Notes: generated from the letters alone by a model not told the origin. Shown: positions 6,709-14,803, counted from the first letter of the stretch. The stretch is 25,029 nucleotides of DNA from an uncultured Candidatus Saccharibacteria bacterium (GCA_964531535.1 CAZHDU010000003.1:2177-27205); one strand, 5' to 3'. Numbers and translations are program-made.

Positions 6709-6767
6709 ACGAATGAGTGTAACATAAATTATTTAAAATGCAAGATAAGTGTGCTATAGTAAGGAAA
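6709..6767. promoter_or_regulatory. Divergent extended -10 promoters for rpsP and rnr
   Basis: Minus strand TG-t-TACACT 7 nt before the rpsP ATG; plus strand TG-c-TATAGT 7 nt before ATG 6768. Confidence 0.6.
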
Positions 6768-8678
6768 ATGAAAAACCAAACAAACAAAGCACAGGGCACA
6801 ATCTCCATATCTGCAAAAGGGACTGGATACGTAGCCGTAGGTACCGATAAAAATAAAGGCCAGGATCCAGAAGTGGACTATAAACACCTCCACACGGCTC
6901 TCCACGGCGATACCGTCGAGATATTACTCCATCCCAAGGGCCCGGGCCGACAGACCGCCGAAGTCACCAAGATAATCGAACGCGCCAAGATGCGTTTTTC
7001 TGGCGTACTAGAAATCGAGAATGGCATATATTTCCTCAAGCCCGATGACTCGAAAATGTACACCGACATTTTAGTCCACAACGATTCTTTAAATGGAGCC
7101 GAAGCTGGGCAAAAAGTTTTTGTCGAGATTACTTCTTGGAAAGATCCAAAGAAAGCGCCGATTGGTGAAGTCATCAAAATATTTGGCCGTCCCGGAGAAA
7201 ACAATGTCGAGATGCACGCCATCGCCATGGAAAAAGGCTTTGCGGCCGAGCTCCCAGAAAAAGTCGAAGCTGAAGCTCTGGAAATTAAATCCCAAGGTAT
7301 CCAAGAAAAAGATTTTGCCGGCCGAAGAGATTTCAGAAAGACCCTCACCTTCACCATCGACCCCGCCGACGCCAAAGATTTCGACGACGCAATATCGTTT
7401 CTCGAAGTTTCTCCCGACACTTTTGAAGTTGGGATCCATATCGCCGATGTCTCTCACTATGTCAAAATCGGTAGCGAGCTAGATCGCGAAGCGCGCGAAC
7501 GTGGAACTTCGGTCTACCTCGTCGACCGGACTATCCCCATGCTCCCAGAAATTCTATCCAATGATTTGTGTTCCCTAGTGCCAAACCAAGACCGCCTGAC
7601 TATGAGCGCGGTGTTTGTCCTAAACAAAAATGGAGAAATCCAAAGCGAATGGTATGGGCGGACAATCATACACTCTCAAAAACTATTCACCTATGAAGAA
7701 GCGCAAGTCTAAATCAAAAAAGCCGGAGCGCCACTCCACCGAGAATTAGATATTTTAAATAACATCGCCAAAAAACTTCACAAGGCCAGATTTGCCAATG
7801 GCGCCATCTCGCTCGAACAAACCGAAGTAAAATTTGTACTCGATAAAGACGGCGTGCCGATCAAGGTCATCACCAAAGAACGCGGGGATTCCAACAAGCT
7901 CATCGAAGAATTCATGTTGCTGGCCAACCGTCACGTCTCAAAAACTATTTCCGGAAAAAATATCGTCTCGATTTATCGGGTCCACGATTTACCAAGTCGA
8001 GAAAAGATGACTGATCTCGCTTTCTTCTTGCGCAGTCTTGGCCATAAAGTCTCTCTCGTGGACGGTCTCATCCCTACCCACGAATTAAACAAACTCTTGG
8101 AAAAACTCGCTGGTAAACCCGAAGCCGACACAGTTCAGCGCGCCGTAATTCGCTCCATGTCGAAAGCCATTTATTCTACAAAAAATATTGGCCACTATGG
8201 TCTAGCTTTCGATTATTACACCCATTTCACTTCACCAATTCGTCGCTACCCAGACATCATCGTCCATCGTCTCTTGGCTGATTTCTTAAACAAAAAGAAA
8301 GTGGAATTGAGTAAAGCCGGAATCTATGAGGACATGTCTCGTAAAGCTTCTGAACAAGAAAAACGCGCTTCTGATGCTGAACGCTCTTCTATTAAATACA
8401 AACAAGTCGAATATATGTCGAAACGATTGGGTAAATCTTTCTCTGGTGTAGTCAGCGGCATCACCGAATGGGGCATGTATATCGAAGAACTCGAGACCAA
8501 GTGTGAAGGCATGGTTCGACTACGAGACATGGGCGATGATTATTATGTCTTCAACGAAAAGAAACTCGAACTCCTCGGTCAAAAGAAAAAGAAACGCTAC
8601 CGCCTCGGTGACCAAGTAAAAATTAAAGTCAAAAATGTAGACCTAGAAAAGAAATCCATCGATTACTCCCTGGTATGA
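6768..8678 (+). pseudogene. rnr: Ribonuclease R (RNB family) interrupted by one in-frame TAA at 7710-7712
   Basis: The 5' ORF has a cold-shock OB region and TFTIDPADAKDFDDA, IHIADVSHYV, SVYLVDRTIPMLP. The same frame continues after the stop (IKKAGAPLHREL...GAISLE...SNKLIEEFMLLAN...GHYGL...YTHFTSPIRRYPD, then S1 domain). Confidence 0.9.
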
Positions 8679-10573
8679 GCCAACAAAGAAGTGCAAAAAT
8701 AAAATTATTGCTCGGGAGCTTGGTTATTTTGTCACCAGTTTTCATCTATGCGATACTCCTAGGACCAAAGCCCAACCAGACCGATTTTAAAAGTGGTGAA
8801 GTAATCACCGCGAGCGCAGAGACGGCTCTACCTAAATATGCCTATTTCAATCGAGACTTTAAAAATAATCTAAAAGTCTCAGCCGATGCCTACCTGGTCG
8901 GTGATTTAAATACTGGCGAAATCATCCTCTCCCAAAATGCTAAAGACGTCTACCCTATCGCCTCGGTTTCCAAACTCATGACCGCCCTCATCTCGACCGA
9001 AATCACCAACCCAAACGACATAGCCAAGGCGAGCGCGGAAGCCCTGAAAACTTATGGCACCAACGGAAATTTTAAGAATGGTGAAAAAATAAAAACCGAT
9101 GAACTCTTGTATCCACTCCTCCTCGAGTCGAGCAACGACGCCGCAGAAATTTTGGCTGAACATTTTGATCGTGCCTCTTTCATCCGCAAGATGAACCAAG
9201 AAGCCGAAAAGCTAAACATGGAAAAAACTTCCTATGAAGACCCGAGTGGTCTCTCGCCCCACAATACTTCGACTCCACTTGACCTCTTCAAACTCGCCGG
9301 CTACTTGGTAAAAGAAAAAACTGATTTATTAAAAATCACCACAAAGAGAAATTTTGCAAACAAATCTCACAACTGGTCTAGCACCAATCAATTTTTGCGC
9401 GAGCCGGGATATATCGGTGGCAAGAGTGGCTACACTGACAAAGCCCTAGAGACCGTCATCTCCATGTTTTCCCTACCGCTCGGCGAGAACACCGAGCTCC
9501 TTGTGGCCATCGTCCTCCTCAAAAGTAAAGACCGCTACCAAGATGTAAAAAATATCTTGAACTATTTAAAGAAAAATGTTTACTATGGTGGCAAAGAAGA
9601 TGCAAATACCGATTGGGTCCGGGCCAAGACCGATATGCCCGATATTCGCGACCCAGATTTTATCACCATGAATTTTGCCGGAGACATTATGCTCGATCGT
9701 GGAGTAGAAAACTCAGTCATCAAAAATTTCAACAATGACTTTGGCGCCCTTTTTGAAAACCTAGAAATATTAAAAAAGGCTGACATTAGTTTTGCCAACC
9801 TCGAGGGCCCCGTCTCTGATCTTGGTCGCGACCGACACAACTTATATTCTTTCCGGATGAATCCGACTGTCATCCCGACTCTGGCTGGAGCTGGTTTTGA
9901 TATCGTCTCGGTGGCCAACAACCACGTCGGCGATTGGGGCCGAGATGCCTATGCCGACACCCTGTCTCGACTTCAAGAAAATGAAATCCTCTACACTGGT
10001 GGCGGAGTGAGCGCCAAGTCTGCCGAAGAACCGACAGTCATCGAAAAATATGGAATCAAAATTGGCTTCTTGGGATTTTCTGATGTCGGTCCAGATTGGA
10101 TGAAGGCCACCGACGAAATACCTGGATCAGAAGCTCAAGCAGGCTTGCCCGCCCAGGCAGGATTGTTGCTAGCCAGCAACCCACGCTTTGACGATATTGT
10201 AAGGAACGCTTCACAAAAAGTAGATTACCTGGTGGTCTCATTTCATTTTGGTGATGAATATAAACTCGTCCACAACGCTCGACAAGAATTACTAGCTCAC
10301 AAAGCCATCGATGCTGGGGCCAAGATTGTCATCGGCCACCATCCACACGTCGCGGAAGATACCGAAATTTACAAAGATGGATTCATAGCCTACTCGCTCG
10401 GGAATTTTATTTTCGACCAAGGCTTTTCGCAAAATACCATGCAAGGCATGCTCCTCCAAATCAAACTCGGCCGAGATGGTAGCATGACCACACAAAAAAA
10501 TATAGTTAAATTAAATAGTGTCTTCCAGCCCGAGAAAGTAATCGAGGGCAAAGAGGAGAATGTGAAATTTTAG
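8675..10573 (+). CDS. D-Ala-D-Ala carboxypeptidase (peptidase S11) fused to a CapA/PGA_cap metallophosphatase-like domain
   Basis: N-terminal TM helix; SxxK (ASVSK), SxN (ESSND), KSG triad. Then FAGDIMLDRGV, NLEGP, ANNHVGDWG, HFGDEY, GHHPHV, YSLGNFIFDQ. ATG overlaps the rnr TGA. Confidence 0.9.
   Translation: MSQQRSAKIKLLLGSLVILSPVFIYAILLGPKPNQTDFKSGEVITASAETALPKYAYFNRDFKNNLKVSADAYLVGDLNTGEIILSQNAKDVYPIASVSKLMTALISTEITNPNDIAKASAEALKTYGTNGNFKNGEKIKTDELLYPLLLESSNDAAEILAEHFDRASFIRKMNQEAEKLNMEKTSYEDPSGLSPHNTSTPLDLFKLAGYLVKEKTDLLKITTKRNFANKSHNWSSTNQFLREPGYIGGKSGYTDKALETVISMFSLPLGENTELLVAIVLLKSKDRYQDVKNILNYLKKNVYYGGKEDANTDWVRAKTDMPDIRDPDFITMNFAGDIMLDRGVENSVIKNFNNDFGALFENLEILKKADISFANLEGPVSDLGRDRHNLYSFRMNPTVIPTLAGAGFDIVSVANNHVGDWGRDAYADTLSRLQENEILYTGGGVSAKSAEEPTVIEKYGIKIGFLGFSDVGPDWMKATDEIPGSEAQAGLPAQAGLLLASNPRFDDIVRNASQKVDYLVVSFHFGDEYKLVHNARQELLAHKAIDAGAKIVIGHHPHVAEDTEIYKDGFIAYSLGNFIFDQGFSQNTMQGMLLQIKLGRDGSMTTQKNIVKLNSVFQPEKVIEGKEENVKF
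10127..10162 (+). repeat. In-frame 36-bp palindrome-containing insertion in the CapA domain (SEAQAGLPAQAG)
   Basis: Contains the hairpin cttgcc-cgccca-ggcagg; GGAT is repeated at 10124-10127 and 10160-10163. Confidence 0.55.
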
Positions 10574-10667: not shown

Positions 10668-10895
10668 TTACCGACCCAGAGCTTTGTCAAGCTCACGGAG
10701 AGCCTCGTTGACCTGCTCCTCTGTGCCGGAAAGAGTGTAGCCAATTTCTTTACCCGGACCAGCCCCACCAGTGAAAGACAATACGACTCCGGATTTGAGT
10801 TTGATTCCCCCTTTCGAAATAGAGATTGCGAGGAGATCCTTCACGCTGAAAATTTTCAGAGCGTCTGACTCAGACAAATAACCCTTAGCTTCCAT
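10668..10895 (-). CDS. Small hypothetical protein (75 aa)
   Basis: AAAGGA Shine-Dalgarno-like site before ATG 10895 (MEAKGYLSESDALKIF...); terminator downstream. No recognisable family. Confidence 0.55.
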   Translation of the reverse strand: MEAKGYLSESDALKIFSVKDLLAISISKGGIKLKSGVVLSFTGGAGPGKEIGYTLSGTEEQVNEALRELDKALGR

Positions 10896-10965
10896 AGTTT
10901 TCCTTTCGGCAGTGCATCGAGGTGATATACCCAAGAACTTCTTTGTATTTATATATTATTTGCTT

Positions 10966-13104
10966 TTATTTCGCAATAGCTGCGGCTTCGTCTAGTTTGA
11001 CTGATAGCAATTTTGACGCTCCGTCGGCGCCTATGGTCACTCCATAGAGAACTCCAGCTCGAGACATGGTCTCGCGGTTGTGAGTGACCACGATGAGTTG
11101 AGAATGTTTAGAAAGTTTTTCGAGCATATCGCCATATTTGCGCGAGTTGGCTTCGTCGAGGGCCGCGTCGGTCTCATCCAAGACCAAAAATGGTGGTGGG
11201 TTTACTTGCGACATAGCAAACAATAGCGCGATAGAAGTAAGCGATCGCTCGCCACCAGATAGCGCTTGCAATTCTTTGACCTTTTTTTGTGGCAGAGACA
11301 CACTGATATCTACTCCCTGCTCAAACACGAACTCACTTGTCGAACCGTCCGGAGAAGTTTCTTCATCGAGGAGTTCGGCCTCGTCTTTGCGAACTCTTTT
11401 ATTTTCAGAAATGATCGAGAGATTTCCATGCCCACCACCGAAAACCAATTTGAAGAATTCGTTAAATTCGATATTGATTTTGCGAATTCCCTCTTTGAAT
11501 TCCACATCAATTTTTTCTTTCAAATCCACAATCAGCTTTTGCAGAGATTCTATACTCTTATTTAAATCTTCCAATTCTTTCGCCAAAAATTCATCACGCT
11601 CGGTGGCTTCTTTAAATTCTTTCAAGACTTCCGCGCCTCCGCCGAGCCCGGCATCTTCGAGTTTTATTTTAATTCGCTCAATCTTGCGCTTTTGGTCTTC
11701 CTTGGCGGTCAAATCAATCTCGCCTTCGACGACATGGTCGCGATAAGCCAAAATCTCTCGGCCAACCAGAGCCACTCCTTCCCGTAATTCATTTTCGAAA
11801 GCCTCAAATTCCCGACTCAAGTTTACTTCCTTGATATTGATAACTTCGAGCGCGCTCGCCAATTCTTGATGGCGAACCTTGAACGAAAATTTCTCTCGCT
11901 CCAAGTCTCGCAAAGCTTCCATGTGTTTATTCAATTCCTCTTTCAAGGCCTCCGCCGATTTGCCGAGAGCTATTTCTTCTTGTTCCAATCGGGCAATCTC
12001 GGCCATGGTGCTCGTCTGTGAATTCTTTAAGTCGACTAGTTCTTGCTCTTCTTGTTGTCGCTTTTCGATTTGCTCAGCGTGCATCTCTTGGATTTCGTTA
12101 CCACAAAGTGGGCAACGGCCAGAGATTTTGACTCGGTGTTCTTTGGCTTCGAGCATGCCTTCGATGCGCCCGATTTTACGTTCGAGTTCGTTCTTGAGTG
12201 ATCGAATTTCATTTATTTTTTTCTCCAAAGCTCGGAGCTCGTCTATCCTCCCGCCCGAAGCTCCCCCATTTTCATCTTTGATACCCTCTAGTTTTAGCGA
12301 GACTTCGTCGAGCTCGGTCATCAAGTTCTTCTTTTCAGAAAGTAATATTGCTTTTTCTTTTTCCAAATACACACTCTCGCGCTTGAGATATTCTTTGTAT
12401 AGAAGGGCGAGCTCGGCTTCCATCTCTTTAGCCTTTTCAAATTTTTCTACTTGTTTCCTTAAGAAATTTAAATGCGGAGCATTTTCTCGGCGCAACATCG
12501 AGACCTCTTTCATGTTTACAGTCGTCCGCTCGAGTTTGCGTTCGCTCTCTTTGATTTTATATTGATACACTTTGAGCCCGAGCGCATCTTCCACCATAGC
12601 CTTGCGCTCTTTCGGATTGGAGTTCAAAATTCTGTCCGCCTCACCCTGAGAAATAATCTGGTGACCAGAAGCCCCGATATTTACCGAAGCCAAAAGGTTA
12701 TGAATATCTTTCAAGCGAACCTCAGTGCCGTTTAAAATATAATTGTTGACCCCATCAGGATATACCTCACGCGAGATGCTGACTGTATCAAAATTCAAAT
12801 TAACTTCTTCCCCGACATCGTTGGTCAAGCGGAAAACTTTGTCTTTGTTATCGAAATAAATAGTCACCGCCGCCCGAGAACCAGCCGAGAGATTTTTAGA
12901 ACCTTTGAATATCAAATCCGAGCCAGACTTTCCGCGCATAGATTTGATAGATTGCTCGCCGAGCACATAGCGCAAAGCTTCGACGACGTTTGATTTACCG
13001 GAACCATTCGGCCCGACGATAGAGACAATCGGCGTATTAAACTCTAAAACGCTTTTCTGAGAAAAGGATTTGAAGCCATTTAATTCTAGGGTCTTGAGCC
13101 GCAT
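10966..13104 (-). CDS. smc: Short SMC-family chromosome segregation ATPase, lacking a recognisable hinge and carrying a central CPLC motif
   Basis: GFKSF, GPNGSGKSN (Walker A), ISQG (Q-loop), LSGGE signature, LDETDAALD, VVTH. Follows rnc. Only 712 aa. Confidence 0.9.
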   Translation of the reverse strand: MRLKTLELNGFKSFSQKSVLEFNTPIVSIVGPNGSGKSNVVEALRYVLGEQSIKSMRGKSGSDLIFKGSKNLSAGSRAAVTIYFDNKDKVFRLTNDVGEEVNLNFDTVSISREVYPDGVNNYILNGTEVRLKDIHNLLASVNIGASGHQIISQGEADRILNSNPKERKAMVEDALGLKVYQYKIKESERKLERTTVNMKEVSMLRRENAPHLNFLRKQVEKFEKAKEMEAELALLYKEYLKRESVYLEKEKAILLSEKKNLMTELDEVSLKLEGIKDENGGASGGRIDELRALEKKINEIRSLKNELERKIGRIEGMLEAKEHRVKISGRCPLCGNEIQEMHAEQIEKRQQEEQELVDLKNSQTSTMAEIARLEQEEIALGKSAEALKEELNKHMEALRDLEREKFSFKVRHQELASALEVINIKEVNLSREFEAFENELREGVALVGREILAYRDHVVEGEIDLTAKEDQKRKIERIKIKLEDAGLGGGAEVLKEFKEATERDEFLAKELEDLNKSIESLQKLIVDLKEKIDVEFKEGIRKINIEFNEFFKLVFGGGHGNLSIISENKRVRKDEAELLDEETSPDGSTSEFVFEQGVDISVSLPQKKVKELQALSGGERSLTSIALLFAMSQVNPPPFLVLDETDAALDEANSRKYGDMLEKLSKHSQLIVVTHNRETMSRAGVLYGVTIGADGASKLLSVKLDEAAAIAK

Positions 13105-13125: not shown

Positions 13126-13821
13126 TTAATCCAACCAATTCTTGAGTTTGAGGGCGGCTTCGGCGGCCTTTTGTTCAGCCTCTTGTTTACTCTTGCCCTT
13201 ACCTTCGGCAATCAAGTTTTTAGCAAAATATATACCGACGGTAAAATGTTTATCGTGATCTGGGCCGGCTTCAGAGAGTACTTTATAAGCTGGAGTAACC
13301 CCGACAAATTCTTGGGCTTTTTCTTGTACCAAAGATTTCGCATCGCGCCACAATTTTTTATTGACGATTTCATCAGTCTTCGGAAGCAATGTCTTCTCGA
13401 TGAATTTCTCGACGACATCATAGCCTTGGTCGAGATACAGCGCGCCGACGTAGGCTTCGTAGGTATTGGCCAAGATATATTGTCTAGCCTTGCCCTTGTC
13501 TTTAGTTTCTCCTTTCGACAACAACAAGTAATCATTCATGCCAGTATCTTCGGCAATCGAAGAGATGATGACCGCGTTTACCAAAGCACTGCGGACCGAG
13601 GTCAATTCCCCTTCGGCATATTTTGGAAATTTCTTATACAAAAAATCAGTGACGATGAGCTCGAGCACAGCATCGCCCAAAAACTCCAAGCGCTCATTGT
13701 GAGCGAGGCCTTGGCTAGGATTTTCGTTGATATATGAACGGTGAATAAAAGCTTGCTTCAGCAAATTTTTATCTTTAAAAATTATTTTTGTCTTTTTTTC
13801 AAATTCTGCAAAATTTATCAT
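13126..13821 (-). CDS. rnc: Ribonuclease III
   Basis: AFIHRSY, NERLEFLGDAVL signature, ANTYEAYVGALYLD, C-terminal dsRBD (GKGKSKQEAEQKAA). Confidence 0.97.
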   Translation of the reverse strand: MINFAEFEKKTKIIFKDKNLLKQAFIHRSYINENPSQGLAHNERLEFLGDAVLELIVTDFLYKKFPKYAEGELTSVRSALVNAVIISSIAEDTGMNDYLLLSKGETKDKGKARQYILANTYEAYVGALYLDQGYDVVEKFIEKTLLPKTDEIVNKKLWRDAKSLVQEKAQEFVGVTPAYKVLSEAGPDHDKHFTVGIYFAKNLIAEGKGKSKQEAEQKAAEAALKLKNWLD

Positions 13822-13843: not shown

Positions 13844-14803
13844 TTATTTTTTACTAATTATTTCAATGGCCTTGGTGATGAGCGGGATAATATCATTATA
13901 GATTCGGAGCTCAGGAATTTCCGCAAGCTCAAACCATCTCGCTCCATCGAGCCCACCAGATTTTTCTAGAACCAATTCTTGATATTCACTCTGCGCCAAA
14001 AAGTATACTACCCGTTTTAATATTTTTCCTTTCTCTGGATGAGCAGCCACATATTCATTTTCTCCGAGCTTTTCTTCGATTTCAATATCTAGCCCGATTT
14101 CTTCTTTGATTTCTCGCATGGTCGCAGTGGCTTCATCTTCGCCGTCTTCAAAACCACCCTTGGACAAAGTCCAATAACCAAACACGTCGTGGACTAGGGC
14201 AAAATACGTCTTGCCATCCGCTTTAGCATAGACTAGAGCTCCACCCTTTTTTTCAACTGGTAATTTGGATATGTCGATTGGCTCTTTGCCATCGCCTTTT
14301 TTCTTGCTGACTTGTTCTTTGCCCGGTTCGCCGATTTCTTTATAAACCGCGCCCAAGACACCATTTACGAATTTACCAGAATTTTCACCGCCAAAAGTCT
14401 TGGCTAGTTCGATGGCTTCGTTGATGGCCACCTTTGGAGGGACTTCGTTGCGATCGCCAAACAAAAGCTCGGTGAGGCCGATACGCAAGATATTTCGGTC
14501 AATGATAGAGATCTTGTCGATTGGCCAATCTGGGGCCGCTTTTTCTATAATCTCGTCGATGGAAGCTCGATTGCGCAAAACTTTTTCAGTCAACAAAAAC
14601 ACAAAGTGATCGTCTTCGAGACCAGGAGCGAATTCTTTTAGATTTCTTTTTAAAATTTCCTTAATTTTTTCTTCAGGAAATTCTTTAGTTTTAGTTTCTG
14701 GTTGAGTATTTTCGCCACCAGCCACAGACTCACCTACAGGAGAAAAATCCCATTCAAAAAGAGTTTGTAAGACTATTGATCTAGAAAGGTGCCTGTTGGC
14801 CAT
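13844..14803 (-). CDS. nusB: Transcription antitermination factor NusB fused to a C-terminal Nudix hydrolase domain
   Basis: [49 protein letters not shown]; then [28 protein letters not shown] (Nudix box). Confidence 0.92.

Follow-up and report, generated by a model that had tools for sequence, protein, structure and literature searches.

The DNA analyzed here, referred to as the window, is a 25,029-nucleotide (nt) stretch from an uncultured Candidatus Saccharibacteria bacterium (GCA_964531535.1, CAZHDU010000003.1:2177-27205), and its smc gene is the subject of this study. The open reading frame (ORF) occupies positions 10966 to 13104 on the minus strand and encodes a 712-amino-acid (aa) Smc protein that is hinge-less, short-armed, and tipped by a CPLC motif, as judged from the ORF itself, Pfam, NCBIfam, and Protein Data Bank (PDB) matches, and an AlphaFold2 (AF2) model. 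It belongs to a tightly packed nusB-rnc-smc row, in which a nusB-NUDIX fusion gene (13844 to 14803, minus strand; 319 aa with the NUDIX part C-terminal) comes first and rnc, encoding RNase III (13126 to 13821, minus strand), lies 21 nt upstream of smc in the classical rnc-smc order. We found no convincing promoter or terminator among these three genes.

All features of smc are likewise read from the minus strand. The N-terminal half of the head (aa 1 to 177, positions 12574 to 13104), bounded by the AF2 model, holds the Walker A motif GPNGSGKS (aa 31 to 38, 12991 to 13014), and the PDB Smc heads 3zgx and 5xg3 align to aa 2 to 207. The N-terminal arm strand (aa 178 to 327, 12124 to 12573), delimited by the model and by conservation, consists of helices 178 to 274 and 282 to 327, with a conserved break at GGASGG near aa 275 to 281. 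The tip loop that follows, SGRCPLCGNEIQEMH (aa 328 to 342, 12079 to 12123), is a putative zinc hook on the strength of the model, the motif, and conservation; it contains CPLC (12103 to 12114), whose C331 and C334 are the sole cysteines of the entire protein. Helices 343 to 447, 449 to 456, 465 to 485, and 490 to 555 make up the C-terminal arm strand and joint (aa 343 to 555, 11440 to 12078), for which a Foldseek match to 5xei provides additional support. Finally, the C-terminal half of the head (aa 556 to 712 plus the stop codon, 10966 to 11439), recognized by its motifs and PDB matches, carries the signature LSGG (aa 615 to 618, 11251 to 11262) and the Walker B motif FLVLDE (aa 639 to 644, 11173 to 11190).

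Several lines of evidence identify the head as that of an Smc protein. The Pfam family SMC_N matches across residues 3 to 697 (9.7e-62). The NCBIfam model SMC_prok_B (TIGR02168) scores 499.3 bits; with its middle part finding no counterpart in the protein, it does not reach its curated cutoff of 567.35, and the match is split into two stretches, the best of which covers model positions 1 to 428. Among all PDB sequences, the best matches are the Smc heads of Bacillus subtilis and Geobacillus (7e-75 to 1.6e-67), and the top Foldseek match of the AF2 model is 5xei, an Smc head with coiled coil and joint (3.6e-32), with 5h68 and 5xg3 also found. An alignment of 105 rows shows no variation in any of the ATPase motifs, and in a tree of the heads the window protein is nested among hinge-less and hinge-bearing Smc proteins of the Patescibacteria.

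The genome also encodes partners for this protein. In the assembly (726 kb in 80 contigs, 94.65% complete, and 5.2% contamination), contig 28 carries scpA (53.2 bits) and scpB (130.9 bits) side by side, both above their cutoffs, and parB is present on contig 13 (TIGR00180, 161.6 bits). Judged by sequence, the window protein is the Smc of a ParB/Smc-ScpAB set, its binding to ScpA being predicted. It shares with the Smc of B. subtilis and Geobacillus (TIGR02168; 3zgx, 5xg3, and 5h68) the head sequence and fold, the joint, the ATPase motifs, the position after rnc, and the accompanying scpA, scpB, and parB genes. However, it differs from them in having no hinge, arms of approximately 150 residues per strand rather than the 321 to 373 of B. 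subtilis constructs in the wild-type length class, a CPLC loop, and a TIGR02168 score of 499 against 567 bits.

The absence of a hinge is apparent in both sequence and predicted structure. The AF2 model (148 aligned sequences, mean predicted local distance difference test [pLDDT] of 83.6) contains no globular middle domain, cryptic or otherwise, and shows a plain hairpin instead. Pfam gives no match to SMC_hinge (PF06470), either in the protein or elsewhere in the genome, which is 94.65% complete. In the arm, the N strand comprises approximately 150 residues in an antiparallel helical arrangement, corresponding to approximately 22 nm if extended as a coiled coil (estimated at 0.148 nm per residue). 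The original prediction described a condensin-type Smc of 712 aa with no globular hinge and a single C331-P-L-C334 between its arms, and it named scpA and scpB as genes to look for. This description holds: the head on the TIGR02168, PDB, and tree evidence; the missing hinge on Pfam, the genome-wide PF06470 scan, and AF2; and the cysteine pair by its place on the predicted fold-back loop at 328 to 342. Both scp genes were found.

The cysteine pair is no product of chance, being invariant within the clade of the window protein. It is present as C-P-[LTM]-C in 120 of 120 homologues retrieved by an arm-region search (58 to 100% identity over residues 200 to 520), whose source names are Nomurabacteria, Paceibacteria, or Parcubacteria, and it is also invariant in the 105-row alignment, which includes a second, distant CxxC group. 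The tip follows the consensus [KR]-E-N-[KR]-V-K-[IL]-[SA]-G-[RK]-C-P-x-C-G-x-E-[IL]-x-[ED], and the spacing from Walker A to the cysteines, which could be measured for 89 homologues, is exactly 300 residues in 78 of them. Histidines near the pair are poorly kept (position -8 in 26/120 and position +11 in 43/120), and a third cysteine is lacking in most homologues. Since the protein has only these two cysteines and no conserved histidine nearby, a four-ligand tetrahedral site would need two chains.

Among PDB sequences, the tip most resembles the zinc hook of Rad50. We built a tip profile from 50 sequences (86 positions) and ran it against 177,635 PDB sequences. The top two matches were the Rad50 hooks of Pyrococcus furiosus, 1l8d (2.5e-5) and 6zff (7e-5), aligned through ..G+CP+CG.E+, and the next matches were coiled-coil noise at 0.009 or worse. 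The Pfam family Rad50_zn_hook (PF04423) matched 41 of the 50 tips, all under the curated cutoff, and the Pfam run on the full protein returned a subthreshold match to this family at residues 329 to 354. The Rad50/SbcC hook has the same CPxCG at the fold-back of an antiparallel coiled coil, with the flanks G-[KR]-C-P-x-C-G-x-E-[LI]; the window protein differs from Rad50/SbcC in its head type, its sub-cutoff PF04423 score, and the lack of any Mre11/SbcD partner found in the genome. A complex prediction with two copies of the tip (aa 268 to 398) and Zn, run without controls, scored 0.19 against a mark of 0.42 and counts neither way.

Taken together, the window protein is probably a hinge-less Smc of a ParB-loaded Smc-ScpAB complex that is closed by a shared-zinc hook, for which we infer zinc binding, dimerization at the tip, and loop extrusion. 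Under this model, the globular hinge and roughly half the length of each arm would have disappeared in a lineage of the Patescibacteria, and in a sublineage a loop of approximately 15 residues, G-[RK]-C-P-x-C-G-x-E-[IL], would have taken the place of a cysteine-free, two-helix tip. Each Smc would contribute one such loop, and the four cysteines of the two loops would coordinate a single Zn2+ in the manner of the Rad50/SbcC hook, closing a rod or ring only approximately 22 nm in length. The heads would be linked by ScpA, and DNA translocation would be powered by ATP binding and hydrolysis, like that of other Smc complexes.

Some observations weigh against this model. Coiled-coil composition supplies part of the PDB profile score, and PF04423 scores only 13 to 18 bits on the window protein (17.6 for its tip) against a cutoff of 24.3, with a best member E value of 1e-4. 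The tip is also the least confident region of the AF2 model (pLDDT of approximately 50 to 65). Functional B. subtilis Smc constructs fall into arm-length classes of 253 to 267, 321 to 373 (the wild-type class), and 407 to 435 aa (PMC5344682), and the arms of the window protein are much below the shortest of these working engineered classes; its mechanism may therefore depart from the textbook one. Furthermore, most hinge-less relatives have no tip cysteine, so a covalent-like link at the tip may be nonessential in the group.

Alternatively, the protein could be an Smc of Smc-ScpAB in which the CxxC is a local cap that stabilizes the hairpin turn, with or without a metal, while arm-arm packing, along with ScpA at the heads, keeps the two chains joined. 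Such a cap would fit the variable tip chemistry of the group, where most hinge-less relatives have two short helices in place of cysteines and a second CxxC group has no proline and different flanks. However, one chain could not complete a tetrahedral metal site, there being no other conserved cysteine or histidine, and no other PDB entry matches the motif and its flanks as well as the interchain Rad50 hook does. CxxC tips are also found repeatedly, in lineages that a tree cannot unite in a single clade; this pattern suggests that a specific function has been selected for. On this balance, we consider a purely local cap unlikely.

A central CxxC, no hinge, and arms of moderate length are also the architecture of Rad50/SbcC, and the NCBIfam Rad50 models do match weakly (57 to 73 bits against cutoffs of 700 to 1,087), as would be the case for a DNA repair ATPase that is not a condensin at all. 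The head nevertheless groups with Smc and not with SbcC, Rad50, or RecN: against the 499 bits of the Smc model, the sbcc model (TIGR00618) gives 32 bits (cutoff of 478) and the recN model (TIGR00634) gives 42.9 bits (cutoff of 407.85), and PDB Rad50 heads reach only 7e-11 where Smc heads reach 7e-75. The gene stands in the rnc-smc position, and the head tree places its product among Patescibacteria Smc. The sole sbcC-model match in the genome is the window smc itself, and sbcD/mre11 (TIGR00619) was not found, which at 94.65% completeness does not prove its absence. The presence of scpA, scpB, and parB, with no sbcC or sbcD found, indicates the Smc of Smc-ScpAB and makes a repair ATPase highly improbable. 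The next-best SMC_N match in the genome, a weak one on contig 44, was considered as RecN or SbcC and rejected, as it is an ABC transporter. We found no second SMC-family gene, the contig 44 transporter being the only other SMC_N match examined, with three weaker ones remaining.

The least credible explanation of all is that smc is decaying or misassembled here, its hinge having been removed by a deletion or by faulty assembly. The assembly is indeed a draft (80 contigs, 5.2% contamination), and the nearby rnr has an in-frame stop. However, more than 100 homologues on independent contigs have the same length and tip, the ATPase motifs are invariant, the Walker A-to-cysteine spacing is fixed, and contigs from three other studies (wastewater, freshwater, and unlabeled metagenomes) span the tip at 92 to 99% identity with no insertion, deletion, or joint. 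No RNA runs are on record among the runs listed as holding the gene, and a 192-nt contig over the tip from a library labeled as RNA-Seq cDNA was flagged as probably DNA.

We also surveyed a sample of 401 Patescibacteria genomes. The hinge family PF06470 occurs in only 10 of these, from three families, and 154 genomes (a tally that takes in one unpublished genome, G154, which supports no other result given here) have an Smc match to the window protein at an E value of 1e-20 or better. The Smc ORFs of the phylum range from approximately 676 to 1,093 aa. Among the first 60 Smc genes retrieved from the phylum, only that of G284, which belongs to the same genus as the window, has a central CxxC; among 150 representatives of 50%-identity clusters, 8 have one and the other 142 are without it. 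The majority tip is instead a cysteine-free insert, which in the AF2 model of a representative, P0122 (pLDDT of 87.8 overall and 77 to 80 in the insert), forms two short helices (337 to 355 and 360 to 377); segments resembling this two-helix insert are visible in many families of the phylum. The original prediction proposed examining conservation of the pair across Smc proteins of the candidate phyla radiation: the cysteines are invariant in their own clade and are not general. Short arms and the loss of the hinge are common across the phylum as sampled, and CxxC tips are a minority. Given the cysteine-free tips of most hinge-less relatives, the term "miniaturized hinge-less Smc" fits the wider group, and "zinc hook" applies to derived sublineages within it.

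CxxC tips themselves are heterogeneous. Members of the second CxxC group have no proline and other flanks (CIYC, CRTC, CRYC, CAAC, CGYC, and CAMC), and four more genomes of the order, from four other families, have a central CxxC (CPVC, CPYC, CGAC, and CPTC). A degenerate DNA pattern for G-[RK..]-C-P-x-C-G had matches in 23 of 201 genomes of the order; a reversed control behaved similarly, and the pattern was rejected as nonspecific. Only matches inside an Smc ORF were used (G458).

The window protein gave no Smc match at 1e-20 or better in 247 of the 401 genomes, and in five such genomes (93 to 100% complete) TIGR02168 found no Smc, the best score being 30 bits. Many lineages of the phylum thus seem to lack Smc. 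Patescibacteria Smc proteins without a Pfam hinge fall into length classes of approximately 680 to 780, 820 to 920, and approximately 1,070 aa; examples include loci L053 to L055 (genomes G202, G037, and G217; family f26) and many proteins of approximately 870 aa (e.g., L044 and L039).

In a first tree, built from heads only with the tip columns excluded and rooted on hinge-bearing Patescibacteria Smc, the CPxC clade grouped with the two-helix proteins P0122 and G256 (support of 99), nested within an order-level clade (support of 100) that also contained, in other positions, seven other CxxC representatives. A tree constrained to unite all CxxC rows in a single clade was worse by 167 log-likelihood units and was rejected by the approximately unbiased test (P of 1e-8); the group was defined by the motif, and the test was carried out with the first tree already known. 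A second tree required at least six changes of tip state on a poorly supported backbone. The absence of CxxC from all sampled outgroups in the class and phylum favors gain.

The Smc of G256, a two-helix form from the same genus as the window, is 75 to 78% identical to the window protein in the head and only 7% identical at the tip, which is 31 to 39 aa longer, whereas that of G284, which has a hook, is 76 to 81% identical in the head and 73% identical at the tip, with the same tip length. G256 keeps the rnr...smc neighborhood of the window. As G256 is orthologous at the same locus but unlike at the tip, the tip was replaced locally. More generally, the two-helix short Smc proteins (P0122 and G256) are orthologous to the window protein and share its neighborhood, head identity, arm breaks, and LGRIEG motif, differing in their cysteine-free pair of short helices, which makes the tip approximately 31 to 39 residues longer than the hook. 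We somewhat favor a scenario in which the Smc tip is a repeatedly exchanged module, with the hook arising from a two-helix tip in nonmonophyletic lineages of one order, once within one genus at an unchanged locus.

Two further observations concern the tip region. The LGRIEG motif (aa 311 to 316, 12157 to 12174) lies in the N strand 15 residues ahead of the tip; as L-G-R-[IL]-E-G it is near-invariant across the hook and two-helix forms of the order, with its two glycines inside a predicted helix. Separately, the Smc at locus L071 (G458, family f203) contains K-I-K-M-S-G-K-C-P-V-C-G, with flanks nearly those of the window clade, and branches outside the clade that joins the window clade to the two-helix proteins. 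This sequence hints at either transfer of a hook cassette by recombination or a second gain.

The exchange of a hinge for a hook has an engineered counterpart. B. subtilis Smc(Zh), in which the hinge was swapped for the P. furiosus Rad50 zinc hook, supports normal growth (Burmann et al. 2017, PMC5344682), and in the reverse direction the MukB hinge can stand in for the hook of yeast Rad50 (PMC6969161). Smc(Zh) likewise joins an Smc head and arm to a CPxCG hook and shows that the design is workable. However, it is a laboratory construct with near full-length arms, and truncations worked only in length classes of at least approximately 253 aa, whereas the window Smc is natural, has arms of approximately 150 aa, and is proposed to derive its hook from a two-helix tip and not directly from a hinge. 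A natural hinge-less protein of the SMC clade has been described as a cluster in marine Actinobacteria (Sussfeld et al. 2025, PMC12153180); it belongs to another phylum, and CXXC is absent according to the authors. The arm-length survey in PMC5344682 was seeded on hinge alignments, and surveys of this kind would miss hinge-less Smc proteins. Neither a hook-bearing Smc from nature nor hinge-less Smc from the Patescibacteria was the subject of any paper that we found, most subscription journals being outside the search, and in the literature searched a hinge-to-hook swap in Smc is described only as a laboratory construct.

In models of loop extrusion, the hinge acts in DNA binding, as a gate, and in contacting the heads, and arm length and phase have roles as well. 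A conserved Smc-ScpAB found in nature that lacks the hinge, has arms of half the usual length, and is closed by a hook would be a minimal version of this motor, small enough for structural and single-molecule work. If the proposed exchange of tips is correct, a ParB-loaded Smc-ScpAB motor runs with arms of approximately 22 nm and at least two non-hinge closures, and the hinge and long arm would be dispensable for the core mechanism. Near-identical proteins that end in either a hook or a two-helix tip allow a ready comparison of these closures.

The genes surrounding the nusB-rnc-smc row have features of their own. In Bacillus, the gene after smc is ftsY, which is not at that position here; directly downstream of smc is an ORF of 88 aa (10668 to 10934, minus strand) with no Pfam match. 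The rnr gene, encoding RNase R (6738 to 8678, plus strand), is in one frame with a single in-frame TAA at 7710 to 7712, yielding ORFs of 324 and 274 aa, whereas it is uninterrupted in relatives (682 aa in G284 and 694 aa in G256); the stop could be that of a pseudogene, a strain variant, or a sequencing error. Positions 8675 to 10573 (plus strand) encode a 632-aa protein in which an S11 D-Ala-D-Ala carboxypeptidase is fused to a PGA_cap/CapA domain.
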